Source: a phage. From it: a DNA stretch of 37,697 nucleotides. The stretch lies in assembly GCA_020318295.1 (NCBI GenBank), contig GCA_020318295.1_4859.1. One strand, written 5' to 3'. A model generated the notes under the pieces. That model was not told the origin of the DNA. It made no database searches and was given only the letters and a program-made list of their open reading frames with translations. Each line of letters starts with the position of its first letter. The stretch's first letter is position 1. Shown here piece by piece: positions 1,683 to 35,858 of this stretch. Position numbers and translations under genes: made by a program.

Positions 1683-4600
1683 TTAGTTGATTTTAGCCGG
1701 CAAGGCTGGGACGTCTTCACCATCTAAGATGCGTCCGATATTCTCCCCACCACGATACCCGACAGCGTTGGTGGTTCCGATGCGCATGATAGAACCCACG
1801 ATACGTGCGTCGACGGAATCACGACCAAAGATAATGTCGAGTTCCTGCCCGTCTTCCGTTTTGTTGGTTCCATACATCACTTCCTGAACCGTCGTTTTCA
1901 GCTGGTTAGCAATAACCATCTTATCCGCTGCTGCCATCTCTACCCGGTGTGTGATGTAGAATCGGACACACAGGCTATTGTACGCTAACGGCACCCCCTC
2001 AACACGAAAATCACCGTTGACTCGACCGTCCTTCGGCTCGTCACGTTTGAGAGCCAGCGCAGTCTTCCGACGTATACGGTCGTATTTACGAACCATCTCC
2101 GCCAAAGACGGGGTCATATCTTCCACCTCGCCGTGGTAAACCACTTCGATTTTGTCGATAAACCCACGAACACCAGAGCGTGGTGCAAAGGAGCTTAACT
2201 CACGCAGCGTTTCCGCTGCTTCTTTACTGAACCCGCTCATATCGCCGGTCAGGTTGTCGGTGAAGGTGCATAGAATTGAATCCACGTCTACGTGGTCCCC
2301 TTCTTTTACCATCTCCAACAGGTTCTGGGTAAACGTCATTGTGACTTCTTTGAGTTTGGTAACATCGGCTTCAGCCTTAGCAGCGAACCGCTCACTAATG
2401 GCGTTGGAGTCCTCAATTACTTCTTCCCCTTCAATCAAAGCGACAGTTGCCAGTATCCCGTTTTTAAAACTGACCTGCGTTGGATCGTAGATGTCTGGTT
2501 CAAAGTGTTGTTCGTTGTACGTGATAACGGCACCGGCAGGGAGTTTATCTCCGCGCTTCCATTTCGTTACCAGAGTGTGTGGGTAGTAAGTCCCTTCGTG
2601 CGGACCGAACCAACGGCCCAGTGGGAAAGCTTCTTCCTCTCCGTCGTCGTATTTGATTTTAACGTGGTCGTTAAGAACCTCCACAATCTTGCCAGGTTTA
2701 TCGATTACGCGTGCGTGCTTCACAGAAGTACGGTGTGCCACGAACTTTTCTTGCTCGGTACGATACGGTGTGGTGGTTGCGCCAACACAACTGGTCGCAG
2801 AACCGAATTGAATCCCAACGAAGTTCTGACGCTTAGCATCGTCCATCAGGGTATCCGGCACCAAGCCATCAATAAACGACAGTGCCTCACCTGGCTTCAG
2901 TTTATCGAGGTCCTTTTTAAAGGTCGTGCCGTCCACGGTGTCGTAACGCGGATTGTTTGTTGCAAAGGCGGTGATACCTACATCGCCGTTATCGACCGTG
3001 TTACCGGAGACAATCCCCAGGTCGCTCGGTTGGAATTCACGGGTACTGTAGACCATGGTCTTGCGGTTACGACCACCTGTACCGCCCATGGTAACAACAT
3101 CTTTTTCTTTGATGTTCTGTACCGGGTTTGCGCCAGGAGCCAGCAGAACAGACGGGTCGGAGTTAATTGCACCCCACACCATGTCCTGCGTCAACTCAAA
3201 CTTACGATTCGAGTTAGGCGCGTTGTTGTAGTTACGCATCGCCCGCACCATTGCGGTGTAGATGTGATACGAAATACGTTGGTTCCCGATGAACATCATT
3301 TCGTCACCGTTAATTTCCGGTAACGTGTGGTCCGTCTGCAGCAGTTCATTAGAACGCTCCAGTAAGCCGATAAAGGTTTCCGGCTCGCCCATTTTCCTGA
3401 GGATACGCGCGTGCATGTCGTCAACAAATGCGGTCCGCATCAGTTTCAGCTCTTTGATGTAGCGTGGTGTTAGCCCATCTGCATCGCGTAACAGGTTCAG
3501 GTAAATGTCTTCCCGGTCAACTTCCGACTCGGTATACGTGGTAAAATGTTTAATGTAACGGTCTAAGCCGTTGACAATCATCCTCTGTTGATCGTTCTCG
3601 CAGACAATTGCAATTTTCGCATCCTGGAGACGAATAATGGAGTCGAACTGACCTTTATCGATACGTTGTCCGACAGAGAGAACCTCGTAACTGATACCAA
3701 AGTGTTTCAACATCCCGGTTAACCCGAGATAGTACGCAAACACAAAGCCCAGCGAGATTGATTTGCCCATCAGTGACAGTTCGGTCATTTCACGTGGAGC
3801 CTTAGAGGTGTCCACGCCAAAGACTTCGGCGAGCGTACCCAGTGGTTCGGTCTTATCCTTATCCACTCGATAGAGCTGGGAGTTTTTATCCATACCGACG
3901 ATGACATGACTCCGCGGTTTCTTCGCCACAGGTACCAGCTCGACACGGTCCGCGTCTGCCAGTTGCCCTTCGTTAAAGAATGCCGCTTTCTGTTTAATGT
4001 CAAAGTTCCATTGGTACCCAATTGCGTTGAACGCTGCTACACGACGTGCCACCTCGGTGTACTGACGCGGCAGTTTAGACAGCGGATCGAACACATTCGC
4101 CAGTTTTGCATCAGTGATTTCGGTGTTCTTTGGATCGACCGCGCGAGTAATAATCGCGTTAGTGAGCCAACGTCCGTAATCATTGACGACTTTATCACTG
4201 CGACGGACAAAGTTCTTCCCGTAGGCAGTGGTTAACGCTACAGTATCGTGGGACACTTTACGGATAGGAAGATCAACGCGCTGACGACGCATTGTATATT
4301 CTACACCATTCGCAACCCAAGTACCGTCTTCGGTTAATGCAGGAATTGAGAAACGTACCGTGGTTGGTTCTCCGCCAATCGGCTGAATACGCAACGTGTG
4401 GTGTTCGATATTCCCGGTAACGGAAATCTCTTTCTCAACAGTGTGATTGTGAATCGCCAAACCGAGACGCTGAGACGATGCTACTGCACCCAGAACATCT
4501 TTCGGGAAGATTTCCTGGTTGTACTGACGAATGATTTGGTCGGTGGTATTTTCCGCCCAGGCTTCATCCGTAACTAAGCGTTCAATCTTCTTAGGCTCGG

Positions 4601-17533: not shown

Positions 17534-17576
17534 CGAGTACCCCGTTAGGGGTACTCGTTTGCTTTTATTTTTTAGC
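17534..17576. terminator. bidirectional rho-independent terminator between convergent genes
   Basis: Stem CGAGTACCCC / GGGGTACTCG with loop GTTA, followed by TTTGCTTTTATTTTTT on the plus strand and preceded by an A-run that reads as a T-run on the minus strand. Confidence 0.7.
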
Positions 17577-18009
17577 GTTCGATAATCACTTTTACGATAT
17601 CTTCTACCGGAGGGTAATACCACAACACCACACTGTTTCGTCCCAAGTCTTTTGGAAACGTTTGGCAATATGCAATGTCGGTGCCGAAGCGCTCAGAGAG
17701 CTTTAAAACGTTCTCTGGGAACTGACAACCACCACGCCAGTCGTGTGTATAGAGTACCTGCTGTAATAACTTCACATTAGCATCGAAGAAGTACAGATTT
17801 TCTACCGGCGCAATGTGTGGTACCGGAATTGGTGTGTCGGTGAGTACGAACTCCAAACCACCGCATTGTTCTGAACGCTCCGCTAGGAATTTCAGATGCC
17901 ATGGCATTAGACCGTGGTCTTCCCAGACGATATTGTTGACCAGTAAACGATCAGCGTATTCGTCGTAATCAACCGTGAACAGTTTCTTCGCCATCGGTAA
18001 ACGCCTCAT
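17572..18009 (-). CDS. hypothetical protein (145 aa; start may be the internal Met at 17994)
   Basis: ORF in the minus-strand block; its stop lies in the T-tract of the terminator. Confidence 0.5.
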   Translation of the reverse strand: MRRLPMAKKLFTVDYDEYADRLLVNNIVWEDHGLMPWHLKFLAERSEQCGGLEFVLTDTPIPVPHIAPVENLYFFDANVKLLQQVLYTHDWRGGCQFPENVLKLSERFGTDIAYCQTFPKDLGRNSVVLWYYPPVEDIVKVIIER

Positions 18010-18910
18010 CTTTTACAGTAAGGGAACCGTTTACTTCGATTTCAGCAGCGGTCATGTCTGCTTCTTTAACGAAGATACCGTCCGCGTTCAGGAAACCCTT
18101 ACGGTCTTTGATTTCATCCCATGCCAGAGAGAAGCACTGTTCCAGCGTCATATCGTACGCATTAGCCAGCGCATTGGCGTATTCGACCATCTGAGCGAAG
18201 TGACATTCGATCATTACCGCGTCGCTGTTCTCGAAGTGTTTATATTCGAGTTGCTTAGCCGAGTCGATGCCTGCCTGATCCCAGATATAATCAACCGCAC
18301 AAGTAAGATGGAAACGCATTTTGTGGAACAGGTAATGACTGTTCCCGGCGTGTGGTTTCTTTGAACGTGCGTCGTTGACGTATGTGCTGATATCGGTTGA
18401 GTCAAACTTAATGAGTTCCATCAAGTTAACCAGCACGACCAGAGCATCACCGATACCGTCCATGATGTAACGACGTTTGTTTTTACTGATACCGGTTGCC
18501 GCTTCACCGTCTTCTTCGTAGAGTTTGGTGGCTTGGCTATACCAGACGCCGTTATCCAGAATACCACGCGCTTTAGACCAACCCATAACGTTAGTAATAC
18601 ATTGTGGGATGGTGTACAAAGGTACGTAACGCGGACGATCAACCGTACCACGATACTCGACACCTTCCAACGTCCACGGCATTTCGAAATCATTTATTTC
18701 CAAACTCTGGTCGCCCGTGAAGACTTTACCTTCGACGTAAGTGTGACCGGTTTCACTGTTCACGCATAGGGTGTACAGTTTCTCAAAGGACCACGGTTCA
18801 ACAAACTGACGTTGGCAGAATCCAGCCAGAAGCTCATTAATCTGTGCCAGGTACTGGTTAGGTTCAACAATAACGTTATACGGAATCTGGATAATGAAAC
18901 GGTCGCCCAT
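17969..18910 (-). CDS. hypothetical protein (313 aa)
   Basis: ORF with AAGGAG 8 nt upstream of the ATG, directly downstream of a terminator hairpin. Confidence 0.6.
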   Translation of the reverse strand: MGDRFIIQIPYNVIVEPNQYLAQINELLAGFCQRQFVEPWSFEKLYTLCVNSETGHTYVEGKVFTGDQSLEINDFEMPWTLEGVEYRGTVDRPRYVPLYTIPQCITNVMGWSKARGILDNGVWYSQATKLYEEDGEAATGISKNKRRYIMDGIGDALVVLVNLMELIKFDSTDISTYVNDARSKKPHAGNSHYLFHKMRFHLTCAVDYIWDQAGIDSAKQLEYKHFENSDAVMIECHFAQMVEYANALANAYDMTLEQCFSLAWDEIKDRKGFLNADGIFVKEADMTAAEIEVNGSLTVKDEAFTDGEETVHG

Positions 18911-18925
18911 TTTGATAGCTCCTTA

Positions 18926-18964
18926 AACAAAAAAAATAAGTAGGGTGTCCATATGGACACCCTA
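18926..18964 (-). terminator. rho-independent terminator (minus strand)
   Basis: Perfect palindrome TAGGGTGTCCA-TA-TGGACACCCTA followed on the minus strand by CTTATTTTTTTTG, then the AAGGAG RBS of the 313-aa gene. Confidence 0.65.
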
Positions 18965-18973
18965 ATACGTATT

Positions 18974-19162
18974 TTAAATCTTGCACGCACCACCGGTGCA
19001 GTTGTCGTCGTCTTTCGACGGGTCAACGCCACCTTCCACACCTGCGTCAGGGTCAAGTCCAGGGATAACCATCTCGTCATCCGGAGACATGTTTACATCC
19101 GCACCTAACCCATCACGATACATGAACGTTGTGGCTTGCCCACGACCGAGTTCTCCAGCCAT
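18974..19162 (-). CDS. small acidic Gly/Asp-rich hypothetical protein (62 aa)
   Basis: ORF with GAGGA upstream; orientation matches the operon; a competing plus-strand ORF 18981..19178 has no RBS. Confidence 0.4.
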   Translation of the reverse strand: MAGELGRGQATTFMYRDGLGADVNMSPDDEMVIPGLDPDAGVEGGVDPSKDDDNCTGGACKI

Positions 19163-23141: not shown

Positions 23142-23556
23142 AGACTTCTTCCTCCCGATACGCGTAGCAGATTGCAAAGTTAAGCTGGCCGGTTGCGCGA
23201 GAAACGACAACGGCGATAGTCTGGTCTTCCACACCCGACATCGGTGTGCCCTGATTAACCATTTGACCTGCGGCCTTACTTACCGGACCCAGCAAACGCC
23301 AGCTGTACAGACGGCTACGTAACGCTGCGTTTTGTAAGAAAGCGGAGCCGCAATCATAGTCGACATTAAACGCTGCAAACATTGGACCACAGTCTGCCAT
23401 CGTGCCGTTTAACGGCAGCTCGCTCGTTACCACAATCTTCACAGGCTTGTCTTTGAGACGCTGTGCTAACGCTTCCCAGTTAGCGTTATTAGTGCCAGCG
23501 ATGATGGTGTTGTTCAGAAGTAACCCAACGCCTTTTTCAAACGCGATATTGTTCAT
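23134..23556 (-). CDS. hypothetical protein (140 aa)
   Basis: ORF with AAGGAG upstream. Confidence 0.5.
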   Translation of the reverse strand: MNNIAFEKGVGLLLNNTIIAGTNNANWEALAQRLKDKPVKIVVTSELPLNGTMADCGPMFAAFNVDYDCGSAFLQNAALRSRLYSWRLLGPVSKAAGQMVNQGTPMSGVEDQTIAVVVSRATGQLNFAICYAYREEEVCA

Positions 23557-23604
23557 TATAGTTCTCCTTGAGGTCTTTTACATACGTACAGCCGTGCCCG
23601 TAAA

Positions 23605-23967
23605 TTATCGAAGAATAAGAATTTGGCTACTGTCGTGCACATTGTACGTATTCATCCTGGGCTTGCTAGGCGGGTTGAATCCCATCAATAATTCGCACAA
23701 TACACGACCAGGCTGCCCACTGAAGATAACTAGATGCGTGGTGTCTTCGCCGTCTCCAAGTCGGGAGAAAGCAACGCGTGGCGACGCAGCTTGCGTGTAG
23801 AGTTGCAATAGTTGAAACTTACCTTCTGCGAAGGGAGCAAGTTTCTCTTTCCACTCGACCATAGATGTTTCGTCGAGTTCTAACGTGCGTACACGTCTCC
23901 CGTCACTATCCGGAACACCACAAACAAACACGATTCCGTGACGATTAAAGAAGAAGCCGATTTGCAT
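23605..23967 (-). CDS. hypothetical protein (120 aa)
   Basis: ORF with AAGGAG 8 nt upstream, directly downstream of a terminator. Confidence 0.55.
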   Translation of the reverse strand: MQIGFFFNRHGIVFVCGVPDSDGRRVRTLELDETSMVEWKEKLAPFAEGKFQLLQLYTQAASPRVAFSRLGDGEDTTHLVIFSGQPGRVLCELLMGFNPPSKPRMNTYNVHDSSQILILR

Positions 23968-23980
23968 TTACATACTCCTT

Positions 23981-27699: not shown

Positions 27700-28230
27700 T
27701 TAGAGATAGTGTTCCACTATCACTTCTAACTCGCGGAAGATATGTGCGGTTTGATTAAACAGCGTATCCTGTTCGGGTGTTTGTTTATCAAATGCACGCT
27801 GATACAGTTCTAACATAGCGAAGACTGTGCGCAGTTTATCGCGCGCGACTTCAGGATCGGATGCACCGAAATAATGATCAAGCCATCGTGGTTCTGAACT
27901 CTCTCCTTTTCTATCGATTGCCTCAGGCAACTCTAACCAACGTTGATTGGGAATGTTGCTACTGGATACACGGTTATACTCAGAAATGAAGAATTCCAAT
28001 CGCTCCACCAACGTGTCAAAATCTCGAATACGTAATTCGAGTTGTCCACGCAATGAAAAAGGAAGGTATTCTTTCCCATTATATTCCAGAGGCTCTGTAA
28101 TGAGTTCTAAGCCCACCATCACTCTGTGCAGGGTGTTATGGGTATTCTTATGAAACTCAGCCTCCAAAGAGCGTCTGCGAGCTTCTACAGCCTTACGACG
28201 CAGGAGTGTTGAAAGCCATTTAAAAAGCAT
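27700..28230 (-). CDS. hypothetical protein (176 aa)
   Basis: ORF; first gene downstream of the conserved promoter-like motif. Confidence 0.55.
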   Translation of the reverse strand: MLFKWLSTLLRRKAVEARRRSLEAEFHKNTHNTLHRVMVGLELITEPLEYNGKEYLPFSLRGQLELRIRDFDTLVERLEFFISEYNRVSSSNIPNQRWLELPEAIDRKGESSEPRWLDHYFGASDPEVARDKLRTVFAMLELYQRAFDKQTPEQDTLFNQTAHIFRELEVIVEHYL

Positions 28231-28263
28231 AGGTGTTATCCTATTATGAGATGTTGTCTCGGA

Positions 28264-28293
28264 TAGATAATATCTGTCTGAGTTCTTTTTGAG
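28264..28293 (-). promoter_or_regulatory. putative phage promoter element, copy 1 (minus-strand read CTCAAAAAGAACTCAGACAGATATTATCTA)
   Basis: The 12-nt core AGATATTATCTA is identical to the copy at 35829..35840 and, in both, ends exactly 33 nt upstream of an ATG; 23 of 30 positions are identical across the extended motif. Confidence 0.5.
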
Positions 28294-28306: not shown

Positions 28307-28777
28307 ATGAGCGAAGAAGTGAAATACCAAGCGTTCGACGGAGATGTGGACAACGAAGATTCGCTTCTCCGCCAAACACAACAGCTACGCGTTAAGCTCG
28401 TCACGGATATGGTGAACGACGGTGAAGTACACAAAGACTTAAAAGCCGTCGACCGAATCGAACGCCTAATCAACGGCATCGACAAACAGGTCATGACGAA
28501 GCGGAAAATTAAAGCTGCTGAGAAAGGCGCTGAGGCGACTCAAGATTTGGCCAACAGTTTAAACGGCTTCTTAATGACCCGTGCAGGCGTTGGTATCAAA
28601 CGTCACGACGATGAAGAAGATTTAAATAACGGATACCAACCCACCGTCCCACAGATTGCCGCAGTACGGCCTCCGAAAGAAGGTGAGTTGGCACCAGTAG
28701 GCGAAAAGATTGACGTTGACCAGATCATGGCGTCTGCGTTTGCGAGTCGTCGTCCTGCTGATGACGACGAAGACTAA
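28307..28777 (+). CDS. hypothetical acidic protein (156 aa)
   Basis: ORF with GAGATGAGG upstream; lone plus-strand gene in a minus-strand block; its 3' end overlaps the convergent 242-aa gene by 53 nt. Confidence 0.5.
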   Translation: MSEEVKYQAFDGDVDNEDSLLRQTQQLRVKLVTDMVNDGEVHKDLKAVDRIERLINGIDKQVMTKRKIKAAEKGAEATQDLANSLNGFLMTRAGVGIKRHDDEEDLNNGYQPTVPQIAAVRPPKEGELAPVGEKIDVDQIMASAFASRRPADDDED

Positions 28778-30118: not shown

Positions 30119-30390
30119 TTTTTCATCCTCTCACGGAGCACTGGAAGAACCACACGTTCCAGGTCTTCAATCCAGTACGGGATATCTTCATTGTGTTCAG
30201 GCACACCGACCGCATCAACCTTCGGTTTATCATTAATCAGGTTGCCGTAATGGGCATTTACCTGATGACTAAATTCAGACAGTGCATGTCGCGGTGCTGA
30301 GAACTCGTTATGGAACGCGGTGCTAAGTTCCTGGCTAATACCAGCGAGACCCAGACACAGACGCTCTACAATATCTTTCTGATAACGCAT
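30115..30390 (-). CDS. hypothetical protein (91 aa)
   Basis: ORF with GAGGA upstream, downstream of a terminator. Confidence 0.5.
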   Translation of the reverse strand: MRYQKDIVERLCLGLAGISQELSTAFHNEFSAPRHALSEFSHQVNAHYGNLINDKPKVDAVGVPEHNEDIPYWIEDLERVVLPVLRERMKK

Positions 30391-30402
30391 CGCTAATCCT
30401 CA

Positions 30403-30431
30403 GGGGAAAAAAACAGGCGGGTTGCCCCGCC
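30403..30431 (-). terminator. rho-independent terminator (minus strand)
   Basis: Stem GGCGGG / CCCGCC with loop TTGC, followed on the minus strand by TGTTTTTTTCCCC; lies 6 nt after the stop of the 497-aa gene. Confidence 0.6.
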
Positions 30432-30436
30432 CGTGC

Positions 30437-31945: not shown

Positions 31946-32245
31946 TTAGCGTTTTTTCAGTGGGAGTAACAGACGACGTTTATGCCAAACTTCGAAATGC
32001 ATTTCTGCCCACTCGGTGACTTGACTGTCATCTTTAGGGTTGATATTAGAAATGCCCTTGAAGCGGTTACGGTTACGTTCGTCGATTTCGATTTCCAGAA
32101 CGCGCTGACCATCAGCACGAGTGGTCACGTTCAGGATTTTACCAACCACGATCGGACTACCATCGGTATTCTTCTTCGTCGGGGTGGTGTAAATCTCAGG
32201 TTCGATACGAGAGGTTAAAGCGCGAGTCAGTAATTTGATTCTCAT
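31946..32245 (-). CDS. hypothetical small basic protein (99 aa)
   Basis: ORF; first minus-strand gene after a 98-nt divergent intergenic region. Confidence 0.5.
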   Translation of the reverse strand: MRIKLLTRALTSRIEPEIYTTPTKKNTDGSPIVVGKILNVTTRADGQRVLEIEIDERNRNRFKGISNINPKDDSQVTEWAEMHFEVWHKRRLLLPLKKR

Positions 32246-32343
32246 CAGATGTTACCTTTATGCAGTTCTCGTACATAAGGTTTGGGTGATACGTAAAAGA
32301 CTTACTATGTAGCCCAATCCCTTATATATTCGAGGTTGATAGA

Positions 32344-33110: not shown

Positions 33111-33152
33111 TACCCACTCCCCTTACGGGAGTGGGTAGGCTTTATTTTATTT
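33111..33152. terminator. bidirectional rho-independent terminator between convergent genes
   Basis: Stem TACCCACTCCC / GGGAGTGGGTA with loop CTTAC, followed by GGCTTTATTTTATTT on the plus strand and preceded by an A-run that reads as a T-run on the minus strand. Confidence 0.7.
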
Positions 33153-35060: not shown

Positions 35061-35795
35061 TCAGTAGTTTAGTTTCTCAGCGACATCTTTACGGATGCGA
35101 CACATCACCACCATCGCACCATTCGGAATTTGGCTCACGCAGTTATCCGTGTAAAACTTACCTTCACACAGATAAAAGTCCAGACACATGGCATCGGTCA
35201 GTTCGTGCCACAGGGTGCCGAAACCATACTGCCAAGGGCCGGAATGAACGACATCGTAATCGCCATCAGTTATGCCAAATGCGGCAGTAGCGGAAGACCA
35301 CAGTGTTGAGGAGGTGGTATAAGTGTCATACCAGTAACCGAGCAGACGATGGTTACGACGTATCTCAGCTAACCGCTCGTACATTGGGATGAATACATCT
35401 TCCACCTGCGTGACAAAATCAGCCAGCATCAACTTTTCCGTAAACCACTCGATCCACGCAAAGATTTGTTCTTCAACGTCTTGTTGGCTTAACCCCGTGG
35501 CAGTAATGCCTTCTTCGTAGGTGTAACCTTCGTAGACGTCAACAACATTAATCTCTACATGTTCTAGCGTGAACAACCGTTCGGTGTTGATGCAGTCGTA
35601 CATCTCTTGTAACCACGCAGTGAAGACTTCTATACAGACGTTGATGGCTGTGTACTTGAATTCATCGCGCAGTGGATACCACTGTGGGTTATCCTTTAGT
35701 TCGTTCTTCGCGAACGCGGGCCAATGCTTTTCGAACAACGCTTCAAAGAACTGGGGCGTGAGGTTTAAAAGCACTGGCACTTCGACTTTAAGCAT
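35061..35795 (-). CDS. hypothetical protein (244 aa)
   Basis: ORF with AAGGAG upstream; first gene downstream of the second copy of the promoter-like motif. Confidence 0.55.
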   Translation of the reverse strand: MLKVEVPVLLNLTPQFFEALFEKHWPAFAKNELKDNPQWYPLRDEFKYTAINVCIEVFTAWLQEMYDCINTERLFTLEHVEINVVDVYEGYTYEEGITATGLSQQDVEEQIFAWIEWFTEKLMLADFVTQVEDVFIPMYERLAEIRRNHRLLGYWYDTYTTSSTLWSSATAAFGITDGDYDVVHSGPWQYGFGTLWHELTDAMCLDFYLCEGKFYTDNCVSQIPNGAMVVMCRIRKDVAEKLNY

Positions 35796-35828: not shown

Positions 35829-35858
35829 TAGATAATATCTATCTCAGATTACTTTAAG
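35829..35858 (-). promoter_or_regulatory. putative phage promoter element, copy 2 (minus-strand read CTTAAAGTAATCTGAGATAGATATTATCTA)
   Basis: Same 12-nt core and the same 33-nt spacing to the ATG at 35795 as copy 1. Confidence 0.5.

Follow-up and report, generated by a model that had tools for sequence, protein, structure and literature searches.

Two strong hairpins with T-rich tails stand directly against the ribosome site of the next gene in a 37,697-nucleotide stretch of phage DNA (contig GCA_020318295.1_4859.1 of NCBI GenBank assembly GCA_020318295.1; this whole stretch is referred to here as the window). They form the modules M1 (18978–18908) and M2 (24022–23965). Both lie on the minus strand, and the strings quoted for them in a first-pass annotation, made by a model from the letters alone, are the reverse complement of the window. 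We think it rather probable, from the sequence comparisons set out below, that both are terminators packed against ribosome sites in an SPN3US-like jumbo phage, with M2 a plain terminator and M1 a terminator around which a promoter is nested.

The 7.5-kb stretch around M1 and M2 matches Salmonella phage SPN3US (Seoulvirus) at 97% identity over its full length and shares its gene order. This phage serves as the genetic model for the giant phages of enterobacteria. The minus strand of the window corresponds to the SPN3US plus strand (SPN3US coordinate = 219881 minus window coordinate), and the SPN3US genome was put together from five pieces and then scanned for hairpins and motifs. SPN3US is a 240-kb Salmonella jumbo phage, a relative of phiKZ, which encodes its own RNA polymerases (PMC7598289, PMC4666361). 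In phages related to phiKZ, early genes are transcribed by a virion RNA polymerase and later genes by a non-virion one; both are multisubunit enzymes that the phage encodes, and their promoters are short, phage-specific motifs (PMC7598289, PMC4666361).

The first-pass annotation saw no room for a promoter at either site. Tail and ribosome site do adjoin without any free space, but the claim assumes a promoter of the host type, whereas the phage uses its own short-motif polymerases. A consensus scan found no sigma-70-like promoter (−35/−10 hexamers with a 16–18 nt spacer) near M1 or M2, with 16 such matches in the window against 24.8 in its shuffles; the scan is irrelevant in any case, because the phage has its own polymerases. 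Rfam gave zero matches at the gathering score across the whole window.

Hairpins, tails and ribosome sites

M1 follows a 62-aa open reading frame (ORF) with the stop codon TAA at 18976–18974. Its stem starts 9 nt past that codon, in an intergenic gap of 63 nt, and the hairpin TAGGGTGTCC-ATAT-GGACACCCTA (18964–18941; 10 bp, six of them G-C) is a stem-loop of the terminator type for the upstream unit. The U-rich tract directly 3' of the stem is CTTATTTTTTTT. The tail, CTTATTTTTTTTGTTT (18940–18925), would serve both as terminator U-tract and as part of the leader of a predicted new transcript, and it is followed by the ribosome site AAGGAG (18924–18919), an 8-nt spacer and ATG (18910–18908). The gene behind it (17969–18910, minus strand, 313 aa) is MazG-like, although its Pfam match to MazG is weak (E = 0.0019) and fails the curated cut-off; this sub-threshold match was the only one when the five flanking proteins were compared with Pfam.

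M2 is built in the same order. The upstream stop codon (24028–24026) is followed after 3 nt by the stem, in an intergenic gap of 58 nt, and the 11-bp hairpin GTGCCCTCTCC-TTCG-GGAGAGGGTAT (24022–23997) is a canonical phiKZ-type terminator stem-loop, with the U-rich tract CTTTATTTTTT directly 3' of it. After the tail CTTTATTTTTTATCTT (23996–23981) come AAGGAG (23980–23975), a 7-nt spacer and the ATG (23967–23965) of a 120-aa ORF (23605–23967, minus strand). All four elements named in the first-pass annotation (hairpin, T-tract, AAGGAG and ATG) are present at both sites, on the minus strand; the 8 to 9 nt given there for the start codon correspond to spacers of 8 and 7 nt.

Both structures are stable. 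The folding energy is −18.3 kcal/mol (z = −5.4) for M1 and −20.2 kcal/mol (z = −5.0) for M2, with 0/200 dinucleotide shuffles as stable in either case, and a consensus scan of the window counts the two hairpins with its strongest terminator-like sites. Relatives from Erwinia and Salmonella also retain them, with compensatory changes. At M1, compensatory double changes occur in 5 of the 10 pairs over eight phages, and none of 500 shuffles reached the covariation score observed; the M2 hairpin is likewise retained in the relatives, with double changes in 2 of its 11 pairs. M2 fits the terminator motif of phiKZ (CCCTCTCC-TTCG-GGAGAGGG-TATC-TTTAT), while M1 shares only the tail feature with it, having a 5' arm that is 50% pyrimidine and the loop ATAT. 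From this anatomy we infer that the phage polymerases would terminate at both hairpins.

Conserved pairing, with covariation, and a conserved loop sequence at M1 would also be expected of elements for RNA processing or stability, in which a polycistronic RNA is cut nearby, the stem-loops guard the 3' ends and the M1 loop is a nuclease or protein site; annotated ribonucleases are encoded near this region in SPN3US. A pure stability hairpin, however, has no need of a T-rich TTAT tail, which is both conserved and enriched. The same motif marks the mapped 3' ends of phiKZ, predicted there to be intrinsic terminators (PMC10914365), and two-way versions of it stand exactly between convergent genes. 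We regard a processing role in place of termination as quite unlikely.

The genome-wide scan of SPN3US places the two modules in a larger family. It returned about 51 strong G+C hairpins with T-rich tails, whose 5' arms are rich in pyrimidine; the loop is TTCG in 20 of the 51, and TTAT falls within the first 14 nt of 31 of the 51 tails (19.2 ± 2.9 in shuffled sequences). A same-strand start lies at most 160 nt downstream of 32 terminator-like hairpins. Thirteen of the 32 adjoin a ribosome site and start codon directly, without a recognisable promoter, 8 to 11 lead into a promoter-like TAC-N15-TRTR, three have a TRTG start motif at the edge of the loop, and three are followed by the early motif described below. 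A terminator directly before the ribosome site of the next gene is a standard layout, found genome-wide, in SPN3US-like phages.

The census also settles what M1 and M2 have in common. Between tail and AAGGAG, both included, the two agree at 17 positions out of 22, and their similarity had suggested a reused regulatory cassette. The likeness reduces to a TTAT plus T-run tail and the context TTAAGGAG, because both features occur genome-wide: TTAAGGAG has 20 copies in SPN3US, 17 of them at gene starts, and is a generic ribosome-site context, and the M1 tail is identical over 16 nt to the tail of the terminator at SPN3US 105758, not to that of M2. A two-copy cassette is thereby ruled out. The module does recur, as had been noticed, but two copies understate it: a third junction lies in the window, and the search for further copies that had been proposed, run on the near-identical complete genome of SPN3US, returned the 13 terminators that adjoin a ribosome site and start.

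At SPN3US 135393–135425 the T-run of a terminator passes directly into the annotated start codon of the endolysin gene, leaving neither spacer nor ribosome site. About 28 nt farther downstream there is a GTG that has a good ribosome site and could be the start instead; the annotated start may be wrong.

A candidate promoter nested around the M1 hairpin

A review states that the middle and late promoters of phiKZ-related phages cannot be predicted bioinformatically (PMC7598289). In SPN3US, a bipartite motif can be described that consists of an A/T-rich run ending in TAC(G) and, at a strict distance of 15 nt from TAC, T[AG]TG. An unbiased count gives 67 copies of TAC-N15-T[AG]TG, of which 23 lie 15–80 nt upstream of a start on the same strand, against 2.4 expected (p = 8e-17), and the leaders at such sites would span 24–77 nt. 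Other spacings from N9 to N21 are mostly unenriched; N13 is marginal, and N17 (8 vs 1.8) shows an excess that we attribute, without having checked it, to overlapping TGTGTG runs. An AAC variant of the motif stands upstream of the SPN3US helicase gene.

M1 holds one of the 23 gene-proximal copies. The A/T-rich TTTAAAATACG (18968–18978, minus strand), a candidate upstream promoter element, overlaps the stop codon at 18976–18974 and includes the TAC at 18971–18969 (as AAAATAC; predicted −21 to −19). Exactly 15 nt after this triplet, TATG (18950–18953, minus strand) extends across the 3' edge of the hairpin loop, so that its G is the first base of the 3' arm. The predicted transcription start is G 18950, which would give a leader of 40 nt; the leader region (43 nt) is unstructured (−1 kcal/mol). 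An RNA started at G 18950 lacks the 5' arm and therefore cannot form the hairpin. A weight matrix trained on 18 sites, M1 not among them, ranks M1 26th of 480,756 positions.

Conservation is the stronger argument for a promoter at M1, compared with the matrix score. The syntenic region was compared, in trimmed sequences, in nine relatives from Seoulvirus, Erskinevirus and Machinavirus. The distance from triplet to TATG is 15 nt in all nine phages of the three genera, and TATGG is invariant among them, forming the longest invariant block of the M1 alignment. In phage pEa_SNUABM_29 the stem is wholly different (GCCTCTGC/GCAGAGGC), and TATG is still in the loop.

The same build is found at other genes. 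Among SPN3US terminators, each of the loops ATAT, TTAT and ATCATA is found a single time, and only in the three hairpins that carry TATG at the loop edge, 33–40 nt upstream of starts. Nested modules of this build, in which a hairpin whose loop edge bears TATG or TGTG precedes a T-run, a ribosome site and a start codon, lie besides M1 at SPN3US 105758–105818 and 225621–225669, and Cronobacter phage CR5 has three at unrelated genes (97979, 104221 and 108982), 34–38 nt upstream of starts, two of which also have an A-rich TAC or AAC at the correct spacing. In all five of these further modules the start codon comes 33–38 nt after the G. Extending the CR5 scan to 150 kb revealed no nested modules beyond the three.

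Several points weigh against a promoter at M1. Its matrix score is 12.2 bits, where held-out training sites score from 3.9 to 23.3 and most around 18; it has AAAATAC and not TTTTTAC, and its G at +2 is found in no training site. Seoulvirus has TAC as the triplet, whereas the Erwinia groups have AAC and one phage has TAA. By chance, 0.59 copies of the bare pattern TAC-N15-TATGG would be expected in the whole window, on the scale of which it is not rare; the case for M1 rests on position, matrix score and conservation. The nested form is a minority design, with only 3 of about 51 terminators per genome, and the invariance of the loop could reflect another constraint, for example a protein or nuclease site on the RNA. 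For phiKZ, the purified non-virion polymerase failed to transcribe middle promoters in vitro, and TATG alone is insufficient (PMC4666361). The searched literature yields no transcript 5' or 3' ends and no transcription map for SPN3US; searches for time-resolved proteomics of this phage and for described promoters that overlap terminators returned nothing usable.

It is possible, if on balance doubtful, that M1 and M2 are both mere terminators abutting ribosome sites, with expression by read-through or antitermination and with an M1 motif that is coincidental or kept for another reason. The low-end score, the replacement of TAC by AAC or TAA and the commonness of the bare pattern on the scale of the window all suit this explanation, as do the 13 SPN3US terminators that adjoin starts with no promoter motif, which would make read-through common anyway, and the partial termination and hints of antitermination in phiKZ and 201phi2-1 (PMC10914365, PMC11512511). 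Against it stand a TATGG that stays invariant although half of the stem pairs covary and one stem has been rewritten, the spacing fixed at 15 nt in nine phages, unusual loops confined to terminators with TATG at the loop edge 33–40 nt before a start, and the three independent modules of the same build in CR5.

A further explanation would make the T-tract of M1 and M2 itself the upstream promoter element, with a start between T-tract and ATG. The first-pass annotation had raised such a double role. It has a real counterpart in the genome: at 8 to 11 SPN3US terminators (11458, 85557, 88371, 93425, 95760, 100101, 168814, 180981 and others) the T-run passes straight into TTTAC(G)-N15-TRTG, and the same fusion is seen at Machinavirus loci (L009, L011, L013 and L015, near 3800–4000), where it occupies the position of M2. 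As the T-run continues into TTTAC, the terminator tail doubles at those sites as the A/T-rich upstream part of the promoter. The idea thus holds elsewhere and finds no match at M1 or M2, where no TAC follows the T-run. The 8 to 17 nt left there up to the ATG fall short of what the motif requires, 15 nt and in addition a leader of 24–77 nt; a start in that interval would delete the ribosome site, and the TATG that M2 has 6 nt before its ATG is unconserved. We consider a T-tract promoter at these two sites very improbable.

The favoured reading of M1, a promoter nested around a terminator, would work as follows. Transcription of the upstream unit would stop at the hairpin and U-tract. The same hairpin would be enclosed by a phage promoter similar to the middle and late promoters of phiKZ, with TAC just upstream of the stem and TATG at the 3' edge of the loop. 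An RNA with its 5' end at G 18950 would hold the 3' arm only, escape termination and cross the T-tract into the MazG-like gene. The unit opened in this way would be closed by a two-way terminator hairpin between convergent genes (17534–17558, both strands).

Such two-way hairpins, with T-runs on both strands, are found exactly between convergent genes at 17534–17558 and at 33111–33137, as reported for phiKZ.

A more speculative proposal, which we hold to be improbable, is that M1 is a stop-and-restart device, in which the hairpin, extruded or transiently opened in the non-template DNA strand, would offer a single-stranded TATG in its loop, help to define the promoter and possibly couple termination of one unit to re-initiation of the next. 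Hints of such hairpin-assisted reading may be seen in inverted repeats at promoter-like sites of SPN3US and in repeats at the orthologues of one promoter in four relatives. If true, it could account for unexplained sequence requirements around the late promoters of phiKZ. An inverted repeat of at least 6 bp surrounds the start at 4 of 24 SPN3US promoter-like sites, and at 3 of 23 when M1 is left out, compared with 3.6% of random positions. This enrichment is only marginal, and inverted repeats around starts were rejected as a general promoter feature.

Read-through at M2 and neighbouring signals

At M2, neither the TAC-N15-TRTG pattern nor the weight matrix gives a promoter motif, and no copy of the early motif lies at M1 or M2 within three mismatches. 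The TATG at 23974–23971, past the ribosome site, was rejected as a start; it is not conserved in relatives, and its leader would be 6 nt long without a ribosome site. The simplest route to expression of the 120-aa gene is probably read-through. Transcripts from the early-type promoter at 28279–28265 would mostly end in the U-tract of M2, and the gene would be translated solely from the fraction that reads through, which would make the site an attenuator. The first-pass annotation named read-through and an overlapping promoter as the possible routes of expression, and these look like the right two options, the former fitting M2 and the latter M1.

The 120-aa ORF is present in the Seoulvirus and Erskinevirus relatives and absent in Machinavirus (loci compared: L009, L011, L012, L013 and L015), where the tail of the M2-equivalent terminator leads directly into the TAC-N15-TATG promoter of the next gene. 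With the gene absent and terminator and promoter fused in Machinavirus, it follows that the gene occupies the slot between the terminator and the next promoter, and it looks like an insertion or loss exactly between these two signals. No Pfam family was found for the 120-aa ORF, and thus no clue to its placement behind a terminator.

The third junction between terminator and ribosome site in the window (30388–30434, minus strand) consists of a hairpin at 30434–30413, a T-run, GAGGA at 30401–30397 and ATG at 30390, with no promoter motif. The hairpin folds at −18.4 kcal/mol (z = −2.7), and the site would be a plain terminator beside a ribosome site, like M2.

Past the 120-aa gene, the next recognisable promoter would be at 23604–23581. 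Here TTTACG-N14-TATG (23581–23604, minus strand; SPN3US 196279) stands upstream of the gene with ATG at 23556; the predicted start is G 23581, with a leader of 25 nt, and the site is conserved in relatives. A comparable site, TTTTACG-N14-TATG (32274–32298, minus strand), precedes the gene at 31946–32245.

At some promoter-like sites without a T-tract, a strong inverted repeat encloses TRTG in its loop. At SPN3US 35388 the stem is 11–12 bp long with TRTG in its loop (35382–35420). In four relatives, the orthologues of the 23604–23581 promoter carry a 7- to 8-bp repeat with TATG in the loop, which is absent in the window; the repeat is GCGGGTGT...ACACCCGC in two and GCGGGTG...CACCCGC in the other two (L007 4405, L008 3652, L010 3719 and L014 3396).

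A second class of motif, AGATAGATATTAyCTnngtGA, has about 23 copies in SPN3US, of which nearly all lie on the gene strand in intergenic DNA. It fits the description of the early promoters of this phage group as long, conserved and AT-rich, and probably represents the consensus for the virion polymerase of SPN3US. Two sites in the window resemble it, both on the minus strand: AGACAGATATTATCT (28265–28279), the nearest recognisable promoter upstream of M2 at a distance of about 4.3 kb, and AGATAGATATTATCT (35830–35844), upstream of the gene at 35061–35795. The former lies within the near-palindrome CTCAGACAGATATTATCTATCCGAG (28258–28282), between divergent ORFs at 27700–28230 (minus strand) and 28307–28777 (plus strand). 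On the plus strand, the same 28258–28282 contains a copy of the early motif with three mismatches, followed by a T-run and a ribosome site, and may be a two-way element.

Significance and comparison with known systems

The terminator modules themselves appear ordinary for this phage family; what they add lies in the bipartite motif and the nested arrangement of M1, for which we found no description in the literature. The analysis yields a testable candidate set for SPN3US of about 23 early-type promoters, at least 23 middle/late-type promoters and about 50 terminators, from a phage group whose middle and late promoters have been called unpredictable from sequence in a review. It also distinguishes three arrangements that dispense with spacer DNA, in which a ribosome site directly follows a terminator, a promoter is fused to the tail of a terminator, or a terminator is enclosed by a nested promoter. 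Should the nested design function as inferred, it would be a compact insulator that closes one transcription unit and opens another in about 60 bp, useful for phage engineering, and it would bear on how non-virion polymerases find a start motif of 4 nt. If it fails, the finding is one of ordinary attenuating terminators in a compact phage genome.

A DNA hairpin within the promoter region of a phage polymerase recalls coliphage N4. The virion RNA polymerase of N4 is a single-subunit enzyme whose promoter hairpin, with a stem of 5–7 bp and a 3-nt loop, is read as extruded DNA; the start lies downstream of the hairpin, which has no terminator function. The likeness to M1 is one of resemblance only.

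Among phiKZ-related phages the terminators are the closest match. In phiKZ, 61 have been mapped experimentally by ONT-cappable-seq, with a motif of a stem-loop followed by YTTAT (PMC10914365). They share with the hairpins described here a G+C-rich stem, a pyrimidine-rich 5' arm, a purine-rich 3' arm, a tetraloop and a tail of (C)TT(T)AT and further T's, all of which M2 fits, as well as dozens of copies per genome and two-way copies between convergent genes. They differ in belonging to another genus and host and in that 3' ends were mapped there, whereas here the sequence alone was used. The M1 stem (GGGTGTCC/GGACACCC) and ATAT loop depart from the consensus.

The promoters of phiKZ offer a second comparison. 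Its middle promoters have the element AAanTTACc near −24 (PMC4666361, PMC8244752), and its middle element AAAATTACC (PMC4666361) resembles the upstream element TTTAAAATACG of M1. Its late promoters have TATG with G as +1 (PMC4666361, PMC12809450), which the non-virion polymerase binds only in the opened non-template strand (PMC12809450), and two of the middle promoters also bear a correctly placed TATG (PMC4666361, PMC8244752, PMC12809450). Both phages have an A/T-rich element whose final TAC stands about 20 nt ahead of the start, a TATG or TGTG as start motif, and leaders of 24–77 nt. In SPN3US, by contrast, the elements form a single bipartite motif with a strict 15-nt spacer and candidate starts predicted from the letters, and the A/T-rich part is mostly T-rich and often a terminator tail.

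Finally, phiKZ and 201phi2-1 have terminators inside 5' leaders, where premature termination gives rise to short RNAs (PMC10914365, PMC11512511). As proposed for M1, a promoter and a terminator of the same orientation are no more than a few tens of nucleotides apart. In those leaders, however, the start is upstream of the whole hairpin and the transcript can be terminated by it, whereas the predicted start of M1 lies inside the hairpin.

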